Below are positions 13,286 to 21,493 of a stretch of 32,000 nucleotides of DNA, one piece after another. Below the pieces are notes generated by a model, which had not been told where the DNA came from, did no database searches, and was given only the letters and a program-made list of their open reading frames with translations. The translations under genes were made by a program, and so were the position numbers. The stretch is from an uncultured Actinomycetota bacterium (GTDB lineage Bacteria > Actinomycetota > Actinomycetes > Streptosporangiales > Streptosporangiaceae): contig CAVYEZ010000013.1 in assembly GCA_963767685.1 (NCBI GenBank), positions 46,457 to 78,456 of the forward strand, in the 5' to 3' direction. Each line of letters starts with the position of its first letter. Positions within the stretch are counted from its first letter, which is position 1.

Positions 13286-14765
13286 AGCGCGGTGACCGGG
13301 AACAAAAGTCATCATCCAGAACGGGTTCGTGTTTCACGTCACGAGTACCGGCTTCGCGAGCGGGCACGACGCCCGTAAAGCCGGGAAAATCAGTTACGGT
13401 TCCGCTATGGGCCTGATGGCATCGGCCGGGGAGCCGGCCGCGGTGATTGAGGCCGGGACTGATCGCCTGGCACAGGCGTTCGTGGACTGCCTTCTCGACA
13501 GCGCCCTTGAGCCGGTTCTCGACGCCGCGGTTCAGCGGGGCGGGCAGGGCGCGAAGCGGAAGAAGAACGCCGGCGCTGCCACCCAGATAGATGGCGCGGA
13601 AGTCGCGCGGGCCCTGCTGGCGGTGACGGTCTGCGACCCGGCCTGCGGCTCGGGGAGCCTCCTGGTCGCGGCGGCCCGCCGGATCGCGCGGCGCGTGGCG
13701 GAGGCCCGCGAGGGGAACCAGTCGCCGGACGCGCTGCGGCGGGCGATGCGCGAGGTGGTAGGCAGCTGCATCTACGGTGTCGACGCCAGCCGCGAGGCGG
13801 TGGAACGGACGAAGGACCGCCTGCGGCTGGCGGCCGACGTCCCGGGCATGACGCCGCCTTTCCTGGACGGGCGCGTCAGACCGGGAAATGCCCTGATCGG
13901 CGCGAGTCCGGACCTGATCGAGAGCGGCATCCCCGACGAGGCATTCCGAACGGCCGACGGTGACGACCGCAGGCATGCCCGTTCCCTGCGCCGCGCCAAC
14001 GGCAAGCCGGACCCCGGGCAGGCAACCCTGTTCAGTGAGCAGGGCGGGTACTCGCACTCCAACGACGCCCTGAAAAAGTCCCTGGTGAAGATCGGGAGGC
14101 TGCCCGGCGGGGCATCGGCCGATGACCGCCGCCAGGCGGCCGAGTACCAGAAGTGGCGCGACTCGGCTGCCTTCCGCGCGAAACGCCTGATCGCCGACGC
14201 CTGGTGCGCGGCCTTCGCCTGGGCTAAGACCCCGGACGCGCCGCCCGCGATCGTCAACCGGGTCCTGCTGGACCTGCGGGAGCGGGGGGCCGAAGGGGTT
14301 CTCCCCGCCGAGTCCCTGGCGGAGCTCGACCGGCTGCGCGGTGAGCACGGTTTCTTCCACTGGGACCTGGAGTTCCCCGACGTCTTCCGTGTTCCCGAGG
14401 GCGAGACCCGGTGGCGGGGCGGCTTCAGCTGCGTCCTGTCCGCCCCGCCACGGGAGAAGATCGACCGCCGCGGGGAGAGCACGGCCTTCCGGTTCGCCAC
14501 GGGCTCGGGGGCGTATCCCGAATGCGCGGCCGCCCTGGCCGAACCGGGCGTGTCGGCGCTGGCCGCGGACCAGCTTTTCATCGAGCGGGCCATGACGATC
14601 CTCGCCCCCGACGGCCGCGCGGGCTGCGCCGTTTCCGCGGGCACCGCCGCCGCCCCCGGTGCGAGGCACCTGCTCGGCGGCCTGATGCGCCGCGGCGCGC
14701 TGGCGTCCCTGTATGACTTCACCGGTGCCGACGCCCCGTGCTGCCTGCTCACTTTCGTCGGCGGC

Positions 14766-14805
14766 CCTGTGCGCGACGGTCCTGTGCGCGACGGTCCTGT
14801 GCGCG
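14766..14805 (+). repeat. 15-bp tandem repeat CCTGTGCGCGACGGT, 2.7 copies, at the methyltransferase frame break
   Basis: Read directly from the sequence. It encodes GPVRD-GPVRD-GPVRA in the upstream frame. The frame switch lies just downstream, at about 14806-14820. Confidence 0.9.
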
Positions 14806-15354
14806 CGGGGCGCGGCCAGGTTCGCGTTCCGGCTGGACGGCCCCGCTGACCTCGGCGACGACGGCCGGTCGTTCACGCTGACGCCGGGCGAGGCCGCGCT
14901 CATCAACCCGAACACCGGCGCGCTGCCGGCCTTTCGCGGCTCTAGGGACGCCGCGCTCATCGCGGCGATCTACCGCCGCGCGCCGGCGCTCTGTATCGAA
15001 ACACGGGGAGACGAGACGCGGCCCGACGGGAACCCGTGGAAGATGAGGCTGGAAACGGCGTTCCCCCGGGCCGCCGCCGACACGGGGCTGCTCCGCGCTG
15101 ACCAGGAACTGCGCGACGAAGGCTGGGAACTGGCGGGAAGCACCCTTACCCGCGACGGCCAGTACATGCTCCCGGTCTATGAGCCCCCGATGATTGACCT
15201 GTTCGACCACCGGGTCGCGCGGCCGCGGTACTGGATCGCCGAGCACGGGCCAGTCGCCGTCAAGCGCAAAGGCGGGACCGCCCAGCGCCCCGGCGTGGCC
15301 GACCGCCTCGCGGAACTTGGCTGGAACTGGGAATGGCTGTGCGCTTGGCGCACG

Positions 15355-15399
15355 CCCGTGCGTGAACGGCCCGTGTCTGACAGGCCCGTGCCTGAGAGG
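15355..15399 (+). repeat. imperfect 15-bp tandem repeat x3 (CCCGTGCGTGAACGG / CCCGTGTCTGACAGG / CCCGTGCCTGAGAGG)
   Basis: Read directly from the sequence. It encodes PVRER-PVSDR-PVPER, inserted just before the conserved ...ERT.. segment of the methyltransferase C-terminal domain. Confidence 0.85.
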
Positions 15400-16081
15400 A
15401 CAGCCGTCGCGGTGTTCCTGCCGCGCGCGGCCACTGCCGGTTCCCTGCCCCTGATGCTGCCGCGCGTCGTGCCGCCGTTCGCCGCGGCCCTGATCGCAGC
15501 GCAGAGCTCGCTGGTCTTCGATTACGTCGCCCGGCAGAAGGTCGACGGCCCCGCCGTGCGGGCGGCCGACTGGAAGCAGCTTCCCGTGCCGGCCCCCGAC
15601 ACGCTGGAGCCGTTCCTGCCGTTCATCGTCCCCCGGGTGCTCGAGCTCGTGTACACCTCGCCCGACATGCGGCCGCTGGCCCGCGACCTGGACGATGGGG
15701 GCGAGGATCCGTTCGCCTGGGATCCCGGCCGCCGGGCCAGCCTGCGGGCGGAACTGGACGCCTTGTTCTTCCGCGTGTACGGGATCGACGACCGTGACGA
15801 CGTGGAGTACATCACCGGCGCGCTCCAGGCCGGCGCCGACGACCCAGAACCGGGCAAGAGCCGCGACGACAGAGGTCGGGGCGCCAGGGAACTCATCCTG
15901 GCCACCTACGACCGCATGGTGGAAGCCGGCGCCGCCGGAGCCGAGTACGAAACCCGGATCTTCCCGCCTCCCGGCCACGGACCCAGGAGCAGGCCCATCT
16001 GACAGCGGGCGCGGCGCGCTCAGCCGTGACACCGCTGAGCGTCGTGCCCTAACCGTTACCTAAGTCCGCGCATCTAGAGTC

Positions 16082-16297
16082 CCCGCCGATCACGACCTGG
16101 TCAAGGATGACATCCCGATCAGACTCGGACCGGTGGGGGGACGGCTGGTTGGTGAAGTCTTTGCCTCCCTGCTTCGCGGTGACCTCGCCTCGTACCTCTA
16201 CGCCCAGCCTGCGTTCACACCGATCGCGGACTTCACGCGCGGGGGAACATTCGGACTCGCCGAGCCGATCAACGTGGCCCTGGGCCGCACGCCCTGA
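16082..16297 (+). pseudogene. C-terminal remnant (about 71 codons) of a haem-peroxidase-family gene
   Basis: Translation PADHDLVKDDIPIRLGPVGGRLVGEVFASLLRGDLASYLYAQPAFTPIADFTRGGTFGLAEPINVALGRTP*. This resembles the conserved C-terminal LGPVGGRIVAEV..GLL.GD..SYL...P.W.P motif of bacterial animal-haem-peroxidase homologues, as I recall it. The frame is closed by TAA at 16061-16063, so no N-terminal part exists. Confidence 0.4.
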
Positions 16298-16303
16298 CCA
16301 TCC

Positions 16304-16447
16304 TCAGCTGATCATTGACCGGATCAGGGCGCCGCTCTCGACCTCGGCGCTGTACCGGGTGCTGAGCGCGCCGAACTCGAGCATGACGTTGGCGACGCGC
16401 TGGATATTCGGCGCCTCCACCGAGCCGGTCGTAAAATTGCTGTTGCG
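16304..16447 (-). pseudogene. unassigned 3' gene fragment
   Basis: The minus-frame translation RNSNFTTGSVEAPNIQRVANVMLEFGALSTRYSAEVESGALIRSMIS* has third-position G+C of about 90%, which is coding-like. The frame has no plausible 5' part and runs into an AT-rich stretch at 16440-16510. I do not recognise the family. Confidence 0.25.
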
Positions 16448-16594
16448 TGAGCGGTATTCGGGCGGCCGCCGCGTTGAATATGTACATGATTTGTTTAATC
16501 ACTGGCGACTTTGTGGGGCCGCTCTTGGCGCCGACGCGAAGGGTCCGCCAGGCGGCCGGGCGGCGAGGACCGGGAGGCGCCGGGTTTCAACCCG

Positions 16595-16669
16595 CTAGTC
16601 AAGCCAGCGTGGTGTTGTCAGCACGTGCGCGGTTTTGGATATGCCGGCGATATGCGCGGGCTCGTAGCC
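16595..16669 (+). repeat. copy A of a van-type intergenic/promoter module (diverged duplicate of 19584-19658)
   Basis: Ungapped hand alignment with 19584-19658 gives 56/75 identical positions. The core is CGGTTTTGGATATGCCGGCGATATG versus CGGTTTTCGATACGCCGACGATATG. It lies 8 nt upstream of the ATG of the response-regulator stub. Confidence 0.7.
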
Positions 16670-16677
16670 TCGGGAGC

Positions 16678-16701
16678 ATGCGTGTGCTGGTGGTCGAGGA
16701 T
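16678..16701 (+). pseudogene. 8-codon stub of an OmpR/VanR-type response regulator gene (MRVLVVED...)
   Basis: ATG CGT GTG CTG GTG GTC GAG GAT is the canonical receiver-domain N-terminus. The sequence after codon 8 (CPASATAS...) is not receiver-like and leads into the IS256 fragment. Confidence 0.35.
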
Positions 16702-16730
16702 TGCCCGGCGTCGGCTACCGCATCGACACA

Positions 16731-16814
16731 AAGTGGACCATGCGCTGGAAGCCAGCCCTGAACGCATTCGCGATAACCTTCGGCGACCGCTTCCCTGCGG
16801 CCGAGACCTACTAA
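16731..16814 (+). mobile_element. 3' remnant of an IS256-family (mutator-type) transposase gene
   Basis: Translation KWTMRWKPALNAFAITFGDRFPAAETY* matches the conserved extreme C-terminus of IS256-family transposases (W...RWK.ALNAFAI.FGDR). Nothing upstream of about 16705 resembles the rest of the transposase. Confidence 0.6.
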
Positions 16815-16866
16815 CCAAGACCGCCGGAAACACCGTTGGCGAGATAGTCCCGGGCTCTGCGTCACG

Positions 16867-16885
16867 GTGCGGCTGCCCGCCGCAC
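16867..16885 (-). terminator. small hairpin downstream of vanX
   Basis: GTGCGGC-TGCCC-GCCGCAC, 14 nt after the vanX stop codon. No U-tract. Confidence 0.3.
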
Positions 16886-16898
16886 AACCAGCGGGGGA

Positions 16899-17507
16899 CT
16901 ACGTGATGGGGAAATCGAAGTAGGTGTTGGGGTACGGCTCGTGTTTGAGGGTGTAGTGCCACCATTCGCGTGCGTAGGAGTCGAAGCCGCAGTCCTGCAT
17001 GATGGTGCGGAGGTGGTGCCGGTTTTCCGCTTCGGCTGACGTGATTCCTCGTGCTCCGTGATGGGACAGCGCGTCCATCAAGTCGTGGTCGCCGCCCATG
17101 GGAGCAAGATCACCGGTGGCTAGCTGGTACAGCGTCAGGTCGACGGTGCCGCCCCGGCTGTGACCTGACCTGGCGGCCACATAGCCCCGCTCGAACACCT
17201 CCGGCCTGCCGATGTTCGGGTAGTGACGTCGTTTCGTGCGGCCGTTCTCCGGCTGCCTCGACCAGCGCAGGAAGCAGTCGACGGCGCGCTGCGGGCGGTA
17301 GCCGTCCCACAGGAGCAGGCCGAAGCCCAGGGATGCGGCTTCTTCTTCGGCTCTGTTCAGGGCGGCGCACAGGGCCCTGGTGCCGACGATGCGGTTGGCT
17401 TGGTATCCGTCCACCGGTTTGCCGGTGAAGTTGTCCCAGGTGGCGTATTTGGCATCCCACCGTATGCCGGGGACGAACTCGTCGACGAAGACGAAGTCGC
17501 TGTTCAC
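16899..17507 (-). CDS. vanX: D-Ala-D-Ala dipeptidase VanX
   Basis: 202 aa, colinear with Tn1546 VanX. Shared motifs: IRWDAKYATWDNFTGKPVDGY, LLLWDGYRPQRAV, the zinc/catalytic motifs SGHSRGGTVDLT and EWWHY, and the C-terminal YFDFPI. The GTG start overlaps the ligase stop (GTGA). Confidence 0.95.
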   Translation of the reverse strand: MNSDFVFVDEFVPGIRWDAKYATWDNFTGKPVDGYQANRIVGTRALCAALNRAEEEAASLGFGLLLWDGYRPQRAVDCFLRWSRQPENGRTKRRHYPNIGRPEVFERGYVAARSGHSRGGTVDLTLYQLATGDLAPMGGDHDLMDALSHHGARGITSAEAENRHHLRTIMQDCGFDSYAREWWHYTLKHEPYPNTYFDFPIT

Positions 17508-18544
17508 CGCTTCTTGCCGTCCAGCGTCAGCGCCACCAGCCGTTCGATGACGTCGGCGAGGGACAGTCCTGCGGCGGCCATCATTCTCGGGTAGCGGCTG
17601 TAGGAGGTCATGCCGGGCAGGGTGTTGACCTCGTTGAGTACGACCGTTCCGTCGTCGGTCAGGAACGTGTCCACCCGGGCGAGTCCCTTACAGCCCAGAG
17701 CGCGGTAGATGACCTTTGCCGTCTCCTGGACTAGCGAGCGCGCCTCGGCCGGGATGTCGGCGGGCACGACGAACGCGGAGTTCTCTGAGCCGCTTTCCGG
17801 ATTGCTCTCTTGATGGATTCTGAAGAAGCCGTGCGAGAGCGCAACCCGGTCTACCTCGCCTGCGACCAGTCCGAATCGTCCCCCGAGGATGGCGCAGCCG
17901 ACCTCGCTGCCGACAACGGCCTCTTCGATCAGCACCTTGGCGTCGTACTGCCGTGCGGTCTCTATCGCACTCGGCAGTTCTTCTTGTCCAGAAACCTTGC
18001 TGACGCCGAAGGACGAGCCCGAACGGGCCGGCTTGACGAAGACGGGATAGGTAAGGCTGTCCGGGGCGATCTTCTCGTTCTCCGTGATCACCCAGTGTTT
18101 CGGTGTGGCGATTCCCGCGTTACCGGCGACGATATAGGCCAGGGACTTGTCCATGCACAGCGCCGAGCTTGGTATGTCGCAGCCCACGTAGGGAATGCCC
18201 GACAGTTCCAGCAGGCCCTGGATCGCGCCGTCTTCGCCGAGCTTGCCGTGCAGAAGGGGCAAGACCACGTCCAGACGGATCATGTCGTATCGTTCCCGCT
18301 CCAGAACGAGCAGCCCGTGGACGCTTCGGTCCGGTGACAGCACGACTGGGAGGCTGTCGCGGCTCTCCCAGTTCGAGCCCGGGCCGTCACACAGCTTCCA
18401 CGCCCCGGTGGTCGTGATCCCGATCCACAGCGGCTCGTACTTGCCGAGGTCGAGGTGTTTCGCGACCTCCTGCGCGGACTTGACCGACACCGGGTGTTCT
18501 TCGGAGCAGCCGCCGAAGATGATTCCGATTTTCAGCTTTCGCAC
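17504..18544 (-). CDS. vanA: D-alanine--(R)-lactate ligase, VanA/VanB type
   Basis: 346 aa, colinear with enterococcal VanA. Shared motifs: IIFGGCSEEHPVSVKSA, YEPLWIGIT, LHGKLGEDGAIQGLLELSGIPYVGCD, YPVFVKPARSGSSFGV, EVGCAILG, FFRIHQE (D-Lac-specific His), LARVDTFL, NEVNTLPGMTSYSRYPRMMAAAG. The GTG start lies 8 nt after AAGGAG. Confidence 0.95.
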   Translation of the reverse strand: MRKLKIGIIFGGCSEEHPVSVKSAQEVAKHLDLGKYEPLWIGITTTGAWKLCDGPGSNWESRDSLPVVLSPDRSVHGLLVLERERYDMIRLDVVLPLLHGKLGEDGAIQGLLELSGIPYVGCDIPSSALCMDKSLAYIVAGNAGIATPKHWVITENEKIAPDSLTYPVFVKPARSGSSFGVSKVSGQEELPSAIETARQYDAKVLIEEAVVGSEVGCAILGGRFGLVAGEVDRVALSHGFFRIHQESNPESGSENSAFVVPADIPAEARSLVQETAKVIYRALGCKGLARVDTFLTDDGTVVLNEVNTLPGMTSYSRYPRMMAAAGLSLADVIERLVALTLDGKKR

Positions 18545-19578
18545 GCCGTCTTCTCCTTTTCGAACGTGAGGCAGGTGATGATGGTGTTTTCCACGGCGTC
18601 ACTCAAGGCGTGGTCGGTGTAGTAGGCGGTGTGCGGGCTGATGATCACGTTGGGCAGTTGCTGCAGCCGCGTCAGCGGAGTGTTGTCGAGGCGCCTGTTT
18701 CTGCAGTCGGTGTAGAAGATCCCGTCCTCCCCTTCGAGGACGTCCAACGCCGCACCGCCTAGCCGGCCGCTTTCCAGCGCTGAAAGAAGGGACTCGGTGT
18801 CGATCAGTGAGCCGCGCCCGGTGTTGATGATGAACGCGCCGTGCTTCATCTGCCCGATACGCCGACGATCCAGGAGATGGTGCGTGTCCGCGGTGAGCGG
18901 GGTGTGGAGGGTGACGATGTCGCTCTGCTCGAGCAGTTCGTCGAGCGGAACGTAGCGGGCCCCGGTTTCCTGACGGGTGTCGTAGGCCAAGGCCCGGCAG
19001 CCGAATCCCCGCAGCCGGTCCAGGACCGCCGAGCCGATGCGTCCCGTTCCAACGACCCCGACGGTCAGGTCGCGGAGCTCTTTCCCGCGCGCGTCATGCA
19101 GCCGGTAGTCATGAGCGTCGGTCTGGCGGATGACGGATTTCGCATTCCGCACGGCCATCAGCATCAGCATGAGCGCGTAGTCGGCCACGCTGTCGGGTGA
19201 ATAGGCGACATTACCCACGCAGATGCCGACGCTCCGCGCGTAGCTAACGTCGATGTGGTTGTATCCGATACTTCGCGTGGAGACGTACCTGACGCCGGCC
19301 CGGCTGAGCGCCAGCAGGGTGGAACCCGTAACCGGGGTTTTGTGGCCGACGCTGATGCATCGGTTTCCAGACGCCAGCCCGACGTTGGCCTCGGACACCG
19401 CTGCCTCGGTGATAGTCGGCGCAACGCCGAAACGAGGCGCGACCTCCCGGAACACAGCAGCCTCGTCCGGCCCGCACCCGTACACGGTGATTCCCGTGCC
19501 TGGGACAGACGAGGAGGACGCGGACGCCATCGAGGGGGCGCGACCGGCCGCTGGCCGCGCTGGCTCGCTAGAGGTCAT
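18532..19578 (-). CDS. vanH: D-specific alpha-keto acid (pyruvate to D-lactate) dehydrogenase VanH
   Basis: Colinear with Tn1546 VanH. Shared motifs: GITVYGCGPDEA, CISVGHKT, VSTRSIGYNHID, NVAYSPDSVADYALMLMLMAVRN, GVVGTGRIG, IVTLHTPLTADTHH, NTGRG, GGAALDVLEGE, SPHTAYYT. The ATG at 19578 has GGAGGG only 1 nt upstream, which is unusually close. The internal ATG at 19530 (MASASSSS...) is an alternative start. Confidence 0.95.
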   Translation of the reverse strand: MTSSEPARPAAGRAPSMASASSSSVPGTGITVYGCGPDEAAVFREVAPRFGVAPTITEAAVSEANVGLASGNRCISVGHKTPVTGSTLLALSRAGVRYVSTRSIGYNHIDVSYARSVGICVGNVAYSPDSVADYALMLMLMAVRNAKSVIRQTDAHDYRLHDARGKELRDLTVGVVGTGRIGSAVLDRLRGFGCRALAYDTRQETGARYVPLDELLEQSDIVTLHTPLTADTHHLLDRRRIGQMKHGAFIINTGRGSLIDTESLLSALESGRLGGAALDVLEGEDGIFYTDCRNRRLDNTPLTRLQQLPNVIISPHTAYYTDHALSDAVENTIITCLTFEKEKTACES

Positions 19579-19583
19579 GCCCT

Positions 19584-19658
19584 CCAGTCAAGGCAGCCGG
19601 GTGTTGCCAGCGCGTATACGGTTTTCGATACGCCGACGATATGTTGCCGCCCGTAGCG
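19584..19658 (-). promoter_or_regulatory. copy B of the van intergenic module: probable vanH promoter with phased direct repeats
   Basis: Lies immediately upstream of the vanH ATG. On the vanH-sense strand it reads aTATCGtcggcgTATCGaaaaccgTATACg. The repeat units sit at plus coordinates 19637-19641, 19626-19630 and 19614-19618, spaced 11 and 12 bp apart, as expected for OmpR/PhoB-family activators such as VanR. Confidence 0.55.
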
Positions 19659-19669
19659 TGCGGGGACCA

Positions 19670-19710
19670 CGTCACGGTGCATCGCCGGCGAGGGCGACGG
19701 CACCGTGACG
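19670..19710 (-). terminator. hairpin between the DUF1707 gene stop and the vanH promoter module
   Basis: 11-bp perfect arms CGTCACGGTGC / GCACCGTGACG. The 19-nt loop itself contains the palindrome TCGCCGGCGA. It starts 12 nt after the upstream gene's stop codon. Confidence 0.4.
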
Positions 19711-19721
19711 GTGACCGCGCG

Positions 19722-20345
19722 TTACGCGTCTTTGTCCTCGGCCGCCCGCCTGGCCTCGCGGGCCAGTTGCCGTCGCATGATCCAGTCCGGTCGGCGGACG
19801 GTGACCGCTCCGCAGAACACGTCGCAGTTGACGACGATCACCGGCGCTCCGGGCTGAGGCTCGCCGCGCAGCTGTGACGACTTGGCGCCGAGCACCGCGC
19901 GGCCATTCATGCGCACGTCGATCCCGTCGGGCACGAAGATGGTCATCGACCCGAACCTCACGGTGGCGTCGATGGTGGTGACGTGCTGGCGGATTACAGC
20001 CTGTTGCATTTCCAGGTGGCAGTCACCCAGCACTGAGCGGACCGTAATGTGCGCGGGAACCACCCAAGGGCCCTTGCGCGACTCATTGCCCAGCACCGCG
20101 GTGATCTCTACAGGAACCGGCGCAGGGTCACCTTGCGGCAGCGCGGGAAGATCGGTGGTCAGGCCGGTCAGCTCACCAAGGGTGCGCGCGACGAGCGCGG
20201 CGTCACTCCGCTGCGAGTATTCCTCCAGGCTGAGCCGCCCCTCGGCGCTGGCTGCGGCAAGGGCCTCGAGGGTCTGCTCACGGTCGGCGTCCGAGGCACG
20301 CAGCGGGCTGTTCCCCTGCTGTTCGTGTCCGCTGTCAAGACTCAA
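19722..20345 (-). CDS. DUF1707 (SHOCT-like) protein with LiaF-like C-terminal domain (cell-wall-active antibiotic response family)
   Basis: N-terminal LRASDADREQTLEALAAASAEGRLSLEEYSQRSDAALVARTLGELTGLTTDLP matches the DUF1707 signature. The C-terminal beta-rich segment runs GPWVVPAHITVRSVLGDCHLEMQQA...FGSMTIFVPDGIDVRMNGRAVLG. I prefer the TTG at 20345, 6 nt after GGGGAGG. The track ORF extends to a GTG at 20441. Confidence 0.7.
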   Translation of the reverse strand: MSLDSGHEQQGNSPLRASDADREQTLEALAAASAEGRLSLEEYSQRSDAALVARTLGELTGLTTDLPALPQGDPAPVPVEITAVLGNESRKGPWVVPAHITVRSVLGDCHLEMQQAVIRQHVTTIDATVRFGSMTIFVPDGIDVRMNGRAVLGAKSSQLRGEPQPGAPVIVVNCDVFCGAVTVRRPDWIMRRQLAREARRAAEDKDA

Positions 20346-20500
20346 GGCCAGCCTCCCCGGCTTGTTGCTCGGTGGCCCCAGCGCGAACCGCAGCCTGGCC
20401 GATTCTCGTCGATGACAGTGTCGCGCATCAAGTGGAGGCACGGATATCGGCCAGATCGGCTGCCCCCAGGCGGCTCGCGGCCTATTACTCGCGGCCCTGG

Positions 20501-21493
20501 TTACGCGGCCTCGACCTTAGGCATGATCTCTTCCTTTAGCCGCTTGAGGTCGTCGAGCGTCTTGGAGACGGGCACGTCCTGGAACGGCGGCCAGAGGAGC
20601 GGCATCGTGAGCCCGGCTTCCTTGTAGCGCTTGAGCCTATCGGTGATCTGCGCCGCGGTTCCGGCCAGCAGGTTGCTGCCCTTGGCCATCGGCGTTTGAT
20701 CGGTCTCCTGGTCCGTGATCACGAACCAGATCATGCTGCAAATCTCGAGATCGTCGATCGAGCGCGAGCTCTCGAGCTTTTCGAGCTCCCCCTGGATGGC
20801 CGTGCGCCACTGCCGGAGCTCCTCCGGCGAGTCCTGGATACCGATCCACCCCGCCAGGCCGTACTTGGAGATCCGTCGCGCCGAGCGAGCCGGGTCCTTC
20901 AGCCCGCTGAAGAAGATCGGCGGGTGCGGCTTCTGCACCGGTTTCCAGCCGAACCCGCACCGGTCGAAGTCCGCGAACTCGCCGTGGTACTCGAACACGT
21001 CGTTCGTCCAGATGCCCTGCATGACCTCGATCGTCTCGCGCACGTGCGTGTGCCGCTTGGGGAAGATGTGGGCGGCACTGGCGGCCGCGAACTCCTCCGG
21101 CATCCAGCCGGCGCCGATGCCGACGTTCAGCCGGCCGTTCGACAGGTGGTCGACCGTGGCGAGCTCCGCGGCGAGGACGCCGGGCGAGCGGTACGGCGTG
21201 TCGGTGATGCTCATGCCGATCCGCACCTTGGTCGTTTTCGCCGCGAGCCAGGGGATCAGCGGCCAGCCCTGGTACCACTGGCCGCGGGAGGACACCGGCA
21301 GTGCCTTCGGGAACTCATCAATCATGCCGAACGCGTACTGGAGTTCCTGGCGATCGGAGGCTTCGGGGACGATGAGCCGGTCGAGCGTCCAGACGGAGTC
21401 GAAATCGAGCTCCTCGGCCAGGCTGGTGAGATCCTCGAGTTCCTTGACCGTTACGTGTTCGCGGAAGTTTGGCAGGTACAGAGCGAGCTTCAT
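20501..21493 (-). CDS. LLM-class (luciferase-like) flavin/F420-dependent oxidoreductase
   Basis: 330-aa intact ORF with TIM-barrel LLM features: MKLALYLPNF...FDSVWTLDRL, LSNGRLNVGIGAGW, HPPIFFSG. It has the lowest G+C in the window (55-58% on two hand-counted 60-nt lines). Confidence 0.8.
   Translation of the reverse strand: MKLALYLPNFREHVTVKELEDLTSLAEELDFDSVWTLDRLIVPEASDRQELQYAFGMIDEFPKALPVSSRGQWYQGWPLIPWLAAKTTKVRIGMSITDTPYRSPGVLAAELATVDHLSNGRLNVGIGAGWMPEEFAAASAAHIFPKRHTHVRETIEVMQGIWTNDVFEYHGEFADFDRCGFGWKPVQKPHPPIFFSGLKDPARSARRISKYGLAGWIGIQDSPEELRQWRTAIQGELEKLESSRSIDDLEICSMIWFVITDQETDQTPMAKGSNLLAGTAAQITDRLKRYKEAGLTMPLLWPPFQDVPVSKTLDDLKRLKEEIMPKVEAA

Follow-up and report, generated by a model that had tools for sequence, protein, structure and literature searches.

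A 32,000-nucleotide stretch of DNA from an uncultured Actinomycetota bacterium of the Streptosporangiaceae (assembly GCA_963767685.1, contig CAVYEZ010000013.1), referred to below as the window, carries a vanHAX resistance operon bracketed by two similar intergenic segments, copy A (16595-16669) and copy B (19584-19658). Comparison with the sequences of other van loci makes it very probable that this arrangement is a single canonical actinomycete van cluster stripped to vanHAX, in which copies A and B are the two paralogous VanR-responsive promoter cassettes of the cluster itself and the vanRS pair has been destroyed. A sequence-only reading of the window had concluded that vanHAX was orphaned by an IS256-linked loss of vanRS, and within this window that conclusion stands, relics of vanR and vanS and an IS256 end being present between copy A and vanX. 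The window does not hold a complete inducible van cluster: 24 + 29 nt of vanR and about 72 nt of vanS remain. It is an ordinary decayed cluster, and actinobacterial van loci with damaged vanRS are already known, incomplete or pseudogenised vanRS pairs having been reported in surveys (PMC8698665). The case carries a caution, namely that a repeat bracketing a resistance operon can be the operon's own paralogous promoters.

The two copies agree at 56 of 75 positions in a single ungapped register, and in the quoted 25-nt core 22 of the 25 positions are identical when counted by hand. Smith-Waterman alignment of 16500-16720 with 19540-19720 gave a score of 41, compared with 11.4±1.8 (maximum 22) for 1000 dinucleotide-preserving shuffles (z ~16.6 for the real A/B alignment) and with a maximum of 18 for about 3000 real slices of the window. 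The sequence-only reading had proposed the repeat from a hand alignment and had named a comparison with shuffled controls as its check; with a score so far above the shuffles, the repeat is real.

Our main set consisted of 80 van loci (L001-L080), obtained by a scan of one genome per species with the VanA of the window as query, in which the best VanA match had only 81% protein identity; overall, 88 loci were examined. An nhmmer profile detected 155 copies of a module of about 75 nt in 73 of the 80 loci, all from other genomes. Two to four copies are present in each of 55 loci, and the 7 loci without any copy are mostly non-actinobacterial. The orientation of the module is fixed: in the sense of vanH, the start codon of a target gene follows 3-5 nt after it (the ATG is conserved in 98-99% of the copies), and the targets are vanH, a VanY-type M15 carboxypeptidase, FemAB/VanK, MurF or an S11 carboxypeptidase. 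In about 35 copies, vanR (MRVL[IV]VEDEP) begins 10-15 nt behind the module on the opposite strand. Both segments of the window match this profile on the minus strand, copy A with 56.8 bits (E=1.5e-15) and copy B, at 19583-19658, with 75.6 bits (E=2e-21). The earlier view that they are copies of one oriented intergenic module, with a target gene on one side and vanR on the other, is therefore confirmed by the module family, and both match van promoters of other actinomycetes. Copy B adjoins vanH, with conservation continuing across the start codon as had been suspected, and it has 87-93% DNA identity to vanH-upstream regions in dozens of genera. Copy A precedes by 8 nt the vanR stub MRVLVVED (ATG at 16678), again as first read. 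Its identity to the vanR-adjacent module is 84% in L012 (over 107 nt) and 85% in L087, and the module plus vanR codons 1-8 align as one match (16594-16701; 84% to L012, 85% to L087), copy A and stub together matching vanR-upstream regions.

The order of genes in relatives gives a frame for the remnants. In 16 of the 80 loci, L012 included, vanHAX is followed by convergent vanS-vanR and then by the module. Searching proteins with VanH and scanning metagenomes for a pattern brought in closer relatives, four of which (L085, L087, L089 and L091) have 89-91% DNA identity across vanHAX. In L085 and L087 a histidine kinase and a response regulator, both called at full length, converge on vanX in the same order; for L089 and L091 this vanHAX/vanS-vanR order is implied by how the matching fragments are spaced. 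Synteny thus recovered an undeleted arrangement, but not the two-cluster arrangement expected by the sequence-only reading.

Between copy A and vanX, the window retains pieces of exactly this order. The stub of vanR codons 1-8 (16678-16701, plus strand; tblastn with VanR from seven loci, DNA alignment with L012, L085 and L087) is joined at 16701/16702, where GAGGAT meets TGCCCGGC, to a fragment of the vanR C-terminus encoding PGVGYRIDT, the end of the winged helix (16702-16730, plus strand). This fragment is identical to L085 at 29 of 29 positions and 96% identical to L012; VanR residues 210-219 align there, out of frame with the stub, and about 580-605 bp of the vanR interior (about 583 bp in L085 numbering) is deleted at the junction. 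The next 121 bp (16731-16851, plus strand) are the right end of an IS256-family element, comprising the last ~27 transposase codons (stop codon 16812-16814) and a terminal inverted repeat (16824-16851) that is intact and was identified against both ends of an element of Mycolicibacterium rufum; the left ~1.2 kb is missing. An IS256 transposase tail had rightly been seen here, but its extent (16731-16814) was drawn too short and left out the terminal inverted repeat. The assignment to the IS256/Transposase_mut type rests on DNA identity, since 16734-16852 shares 84-85% identity with the 3' ends of IS256-family transposase elements annotated in 141 actinomycete plasmids; the 36-residue peptide alone gave no Pfam hit, for which it is too short. 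The element does not have two flanking inverted repeats: no second IS256 repeat was found in the window with up to 3 mismatches allowed. As its left end and most of the transposase gene are deleted, the IS256 copy is a truncated, dead relic. It is followed by the 3' relic of vanS (16852-16923, plus strand), the last ~23 codons ending in GLCVTVRLPAAQPAGDYVMGKSK and a stop, which is convergent with vanX, overlaps its end and matches the C-terminus of VanS in L012 (GGLRVTVRLPAAPPGR and stop). A single high-scoring segment pair of 89.6% identity to L085 (16851-19496) spans the end of vanS, vanX, vanA and most of vanH. In L085 numbering, the 121-bp IS relic stands in place of about 1110 bp, comprising the vanR tail and nearly all of vanS. 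The vanR C-terminal and vanS pieces had been overlooked by the sequence-only reading, as had a piece of murF at 19690-19719; the first two tie the relics between copy A and vanX to one operon.

The proposed course of events runs as follows. The ancestral cluster would have had murF and vanH diverging from one intergenic region, vanH-vanA-vanX running towards a convergent vanS-vanR pair, and vanR diverging in turn from an accessory gene. We infer that an IS256-family element inserted into vanS, about 37-70 nt ahead of its stop, that a later deletion took ~1.1 kb of vanS and the vanR tail along with the left ~1.2 kb of the element, and that the vanR interior fell to a separate deletion of ~0.6 kb. 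Most of murF and the former target gene of copy A are gone as well. Because one breakpoint lies inside the element, the vanRS deletion is not of the classical type adjacent to an IS end. A close relative, the 6414-bp contig carrying P0121 from JGI sample 3300050821, has vanHAX and a convergent 393-aa histidine kinase, with no vanR gene called in the 386-bp gap after the kinase. Its VanH groups at 90% identity with P0001, and P0001 in turn is 92% identical to the VanH of the window. To judge from these gene calls, the internal deletion in vanR may be common to the contig and the window, in which case it would have preceded the IS256 event.

The direct orientation and common polarity of copies A and B had led the sequence-only reading to two van clusters, or a tandem duplicate, each with divergent vanH and vanR, from which deletions took vanRS on both sides and vanHAX on one. 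The layout it assumed exists, vanR being directly divergent from vanH in L011, L022, L031, L039, L068 and L075. We reject this model, which we regard as very improbable, because two to four modules are normal in one cluster, the remnants are colinear with single clusters in which vanS-vanR converge on vanX, and murF, not vanR, lies beyond copy B. The last point is given by 19659-19720 (plus strand), which holds a relic of the vanH-murF intergenic region and of murF codons ~17-28, is similar in DNA to L082 and L087, and forms the right edge of van homology. Within it, 19659-19688 matches the vanH-murF intergenic region of these two loci, and 19690-19719 encodes EGDGTVTVTA, corresponding to MurF residues 18-27 with 9 of 10 identical (tblastn with the MurF of L087, where murF is divergent from vanH). 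About 67-70 bp with the murF start is deleted beyond copy B; the vanR side that had been placed to the right of this copy is thus absent. Moreover, the core identity of A and B is 70.5%, and neither is a preferred match of the other: in the list of 149 matches to A, B comes 72nd, and in that of 149 matches to B, A comes 134th. The nearest matches of copy B are vanH-type copies from other genera, and several vanR-type copies are among the nearest of copy A. No second vanHAX or other set of van relics was found in the window.

Copies A and B might also be the ends of a mobile element, composite or MITE-like, that carries vanHAX, with their similarity due to transposition. Consistent with this, van homology begins almost exactly at the outer edge of copy A (16591), and in L083 and L084 it ends about 10 nt beyond the copy B box, with different neighbours there. 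We nevertheless consider it highly unlikely. The copies are direct rather than inverted, the module lies 3-5 nt from the start codons of several different genes inside clusters and not at variable borders, and in the window homology runs past copy B into the murF relic. No transposase is associated with the module, and neither flanking target-site duplications nor a module away from van genes was seen in the 88 loci. The closest contigs, L083, L084 and L088, are 94% identical to the window over the van genes and 97% over a neighbouring gene for a luciferase-like monooxygenase, which is linked to vanH in all four sequences. Since vanH stands beside this same gene, the van cluster is, as judged from sequence, at a shared chromosomal site in this lineage. 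What lies between the luciferase-like gene and the module varies: the window has a DUF1707/LiaF_C gene there (DUF1707/LiaF-like region 19722-20441, luciferase-like region 20501-21493, the neighbours of vanH), L083 has a Methyltransf_19 gene, and L084 has 8 bp. Upstream, L084 also carries an IS607-like pair consisting of a resolvase and TnpB. The flanking genes of the window showed no synteny with the 80 GTDB loci.

As for the single stripped cluster that we favor, the promoter character of the two copies is visible in the family alignment. In vanH sense, the consensus is GC ATATCGTCGGC ATATCGAAAAC CGCATACGTGCTGGCAACACCACGCTGCCTTGACTGGAGGC ATG ACC TAC AGC GAA CC, and conservation is highest in two TATCG half-sites spaced 11 bp apart and in CATACG, GGCAAC, TTGACTG and GGCATG; the half-site positions are 87-100% conserved among ~150 copies. 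Copy B is the vanH promoter, and its candidate VanR box, TATCGTCGGCGTATCG (19626-19641, minus strand; half-sites 11 bp apart), is an exact TATCG-N6-TATCG match that falls on the most conserved columns of the family. Beyond the box, copy B keeps the conserved blocks CATACG, GGCAAC and TTGACTGG, followed by the ATG of vanH. The candidate box of copy A, TATCGCCGGCATATCC (16637-16652, minus strand), has one mismatch, a G to C change in the second half-site. Direct repeats phased at 11 bp are the usual type of site for dimers of OmpR-family regulators such as VanR, and on the strength of this phasing the TATCG-N6-TATCG box probably binds phosphorylated VanR.

Copy A is the bidirectional form of the module, and its other strand would drive a leaderless vanR. 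The hexamer TAGCCT (16665-16670, plus strand; family consensus TAgCAT), which ends 7 nt before the vanR ATG, is the putative -10 element, and the predicted transcription start is the A of the ATG at 16678. In Streptomyces coelicolor, vanR (SCO3590) is leaderless, with its transcription start site at 3968617, the first base of the gene, by differential RNA sequencing (PMC4895711 Supplementary Datasets 1 and 2), which fits a TAnnnT hexamer ending 7 nt before the vanR ATG. Relative to the predicted start, the box would occupy about -42 to -27. Two features expected of VanR-dependent van promoters in actinomycetes are present, namely a conserved sequence directly upstream of van genes that is common to several promoters of a cluster, and at copy A a divergent layout with vanR across a short shared region, which recurs in 35 copies elsewhere. 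In three close relatives (L085 14410-14447, L089 3438-3476 and L091 4887-4919), the vanR-adjacent module consists of its vanR-proximal half only, that is profile positions 1-38 with the TATCG repeats included; this suggests that the vanR-proximal half may be sufficient for vanR expression.

The two copies are in different condition. Some 47 positions are conserved at >=85% among the other 148 copies of the family; copy B agrees with the consensus at every one of them, and copy A departs from it at 7-8. The departures in copy A are G to C in the second half-site, CATAC to CGCAC (T27 is 99% conserved), GGCAAC to GACAAC, TGG to TAG, a C63 to G change directly ahead of the start codon, and TTG in place of ATG. 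This TTG (16588-16590, minus strand) stands where, in the alignment of 150 module copies, the target gene normally has its ATG, and similarity to other van clusters ends at 16591-16597 (BLAST against intact clusters). As van-cluster similarity stops at the TTG, the target gene of copy A, vanY-like in most relatives, is lost. Inside vanH, at 18855-18870 on the minus strand, GATCGTCGGCGTATCG differs from the copy B box at a single one of its 16 positions, spacer included. The site codes for DRRRI and is semi-conserved, with 7-9 of the 10 half-site positions shared by homologues. We did not count it as a VanR site because it is probably codon-driven; an internal low-affinity site is possible.

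Several points weigh against our interpretation. The contigs of L083, L084 and L088 end before the vanRS side, and the undeleted state in the same lineage was therefore not seen directly. The 7-8 mismatches of copy A are in the upper tail of the family but not unique; as 12% of the other copies are equally poor, decay of copy A, though likely, is not proven and its mismatches are only suggestive. The actinomycete VanR motif was called undetermined in a 2016 paper (PMC5036315), and no VanR motif was found in the literature on VnlR, Dbv6 and sigma-E. Consensus scans revealed no sigma-70-like promoter in copy A or B, as expected for activator-dependent promoters, and none of several -35/-10 placements tried for the vanH-side promoter fixed the vanH transcription start.

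The three structural genes are intact. On the minus strand, vanX (16899-17507; D-Ala-D-Ala dipeptidase, Pfam Peptidase_M15, E=2e-61), the vanA-type D-Ala-D-Lac ligase gene (17504-18544; Dala_Dala_lig N and C domains, E=1e-58) and vanH (18532-19578; D-lactate dehydrogenase, 2-Hacid_dh_C, E=3e-53) form an operon in the order H-A-X, with reading frames overlapping at 18532-18544 and 17504-17507. They are 74-86% identical to their homologues in the 80 loci, and near-invariant residues are kept at 157/157 positions in VanA, 92/93 in VanX and 105/107 in VanH. The module alignment places the vanH start at the family-conserved ATG directly after the module; the NCBI call for this VanH (P0002, 307 aa) begins downstream of it.

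Could vanHAX be a silent, decaying pseudocluster that looks intact only because vanRS was lost recently? We consider this rather unlikely, although vanRS is destroyed and some signs point that way. Two VanH substitutions, T135A and N335T, fall on positions without variation among 78 homologues, one in VanX, D88N, falls on a 97%-conserved position, and dN/dS of vanH against L083 is 0.35, above that of vanA. These substitutions may reflect early relaxed selection or be lineage-specific. On the other side stand three full-length reading frames, the complete set of near-invariant VanA residues, and a copy B that keeps all strongly conserved positions while copy A, whose genes are lost, has changed. 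Moreover, vanH and vanA remain open in related contigs from this chromosomal site, beside the same luciferase-like gene, at a DNA divergence of 3-8%. With dN/dS of 0.12-0.35 for vanHAX against close relatives, the comparison suggests that vanHAX and its promoter stayed under selection while the relic promoter A drifted. Such selection on vanHAX and copy B suggests in turn that the operon might be controlled by a VanR encoded elsewhere, or serve another use. A scan of the large open reading frames across the 32 kb gave no two-component genes.

A broader reading of the family is possible, which we put forward tentatively: the ~100-bp module could be a portable bidirectional VanR-responsive cassette common across Actinomycetota, with a box, a leaderless vanR promoter face, and a face comprising promoter, start codon and leader. 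The module is followed by a leader of ~10-12 codons, M-T-Y-S-E-P-A-R-T-A-A-R, which is found on VanH in 38 copies. The same leader occurs on proteins of VanK, MurF and VanY size and on other open reading frames in up to 17 copies, a few of which are possibly unrecognised VanH. Leader-bearing examples are L059 6242-6320, L044 8829-8899, L021 8856-8924 and L060 6797-6870, and in the window 19543-19578. From this distribution, it seems that unrelated genes (vanH, vanY-like, vanK, murF) acquired the promoter cassette and a short coding leader in one graft. If the portable cassette is true, it would define the actinomycete VanR operator and permit sequence-based prediction of VanR regulons, and the perfectly kept copy B would imply that the orphan vanHAX is still under a trans VanR encoded elsewhere. 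The by-product best suited to reuse is the module as defined by comparing the 155 copies, together with the candidate actinomycete VanR operator that this yields, TATCG-N6-TATCG.

The outer flanks of the van remnant add some observations of their own. At 19650-19730, directly after the stop of the upstream DUF1707/LiaF-like gene, a hairpin of -48.6 kcal/mol (z -3.9) is predicted, and this structure beyond copy B may insulate vanHAX from read-through. On the other side, no relics of vanY, vanK, murF or other accessory genes were found left of copy A with all module-flanking proteins of the 80 loci. The ~300 bp at 16294-16590, with an AT-rich patch at 16470-16510, matched neither plasmids nor van loci, and the left flank 16290-16600 likewise had no match in plasmids. 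Further left, in 14713-16293, a 429-aa open reading frame without Pfam family ends at 16002 and a protein-like stretch continues in another frame to 16293, so that a frameshift or pseudogene is possible there. The reading frame 13329-14849 has weak matches to the DNA methyltransferase domains Eco57I, UPF0020 (RMKL-like), N6_Mtase and MmeI, all below the Pfam curated cut-offs except UPF0020 (22.8 vs a cut-off of 22.3). No Rfam family matched 15500-20500.

The van promoters of S. coelicolor were reportedly mapped by Hong et al. in 2004. In that species the van promoters are VanR-dependent, and a "divergent vanR-vanJ promoter" has been named (PMC6001138). The vanSRJKHAX cluster of S. coelicolor, whose promoters are the nearest model for those seen here, resembles the window in that vanHAX lies behind a VanR-dependent promoter, vanR is divergent from an accessory gene across a short shared region as at copy A (PMC6001138), the vanR mRNA is leaderless as predicted here (PMC4895711), and several promoters of one cluster share sequence, the promoter sequences being compared by description only. 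In the window, by contrast, vanRS converges on vanX instead of lying upstream, an arrangement seen in 16 of the 80 loci, and vanRS and all accessory genes are destroyed. In Amycolatopsis balhimycina, vanHAX is likewise without adjacent vanRS and lies apart from the VanRS-like VnlRS (PMC5036315), so that in both cases control must come from elsewhere. However, no relics of a destroyed adjacent vanRS are described for A. balhimycina, whereas those of the window prove a secondary loss. The IS256 relic has its counterpart in the element of the M. rufum plasmid NZ_CP103313.1, whose transposase C-terminus, ending in WKPALNAFAITFGDRFPAAETY, and right repeat share 84-85% DNA identity with it; only 121 bp of such an element is left in the window, without the left end and most of the transposase.

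The closest parallel in events is with vancomycin-variable enterococci, whose Tn1546 vanA clusters are silenced when IS insertions or deletions hit vanRS and an intact vanHAX remains behind a promoter that needs VanR (PMC4914660, PMC7953315). Unlike these, the window comes from an environmental high-G+C actinomycete, its cluster is chromosomal and not on a transposon, and the IS is of the IS256 family with only its last 121 bp left. The locus can thus be seen as an environmental actinomycete counterpart of silenced vanA clusters, with vanHAX and a VanR-type promoter kept and vanRS destroyed. Scoring by gene presence would call such a cluster resistant, though its expression depends on something outside the locus.

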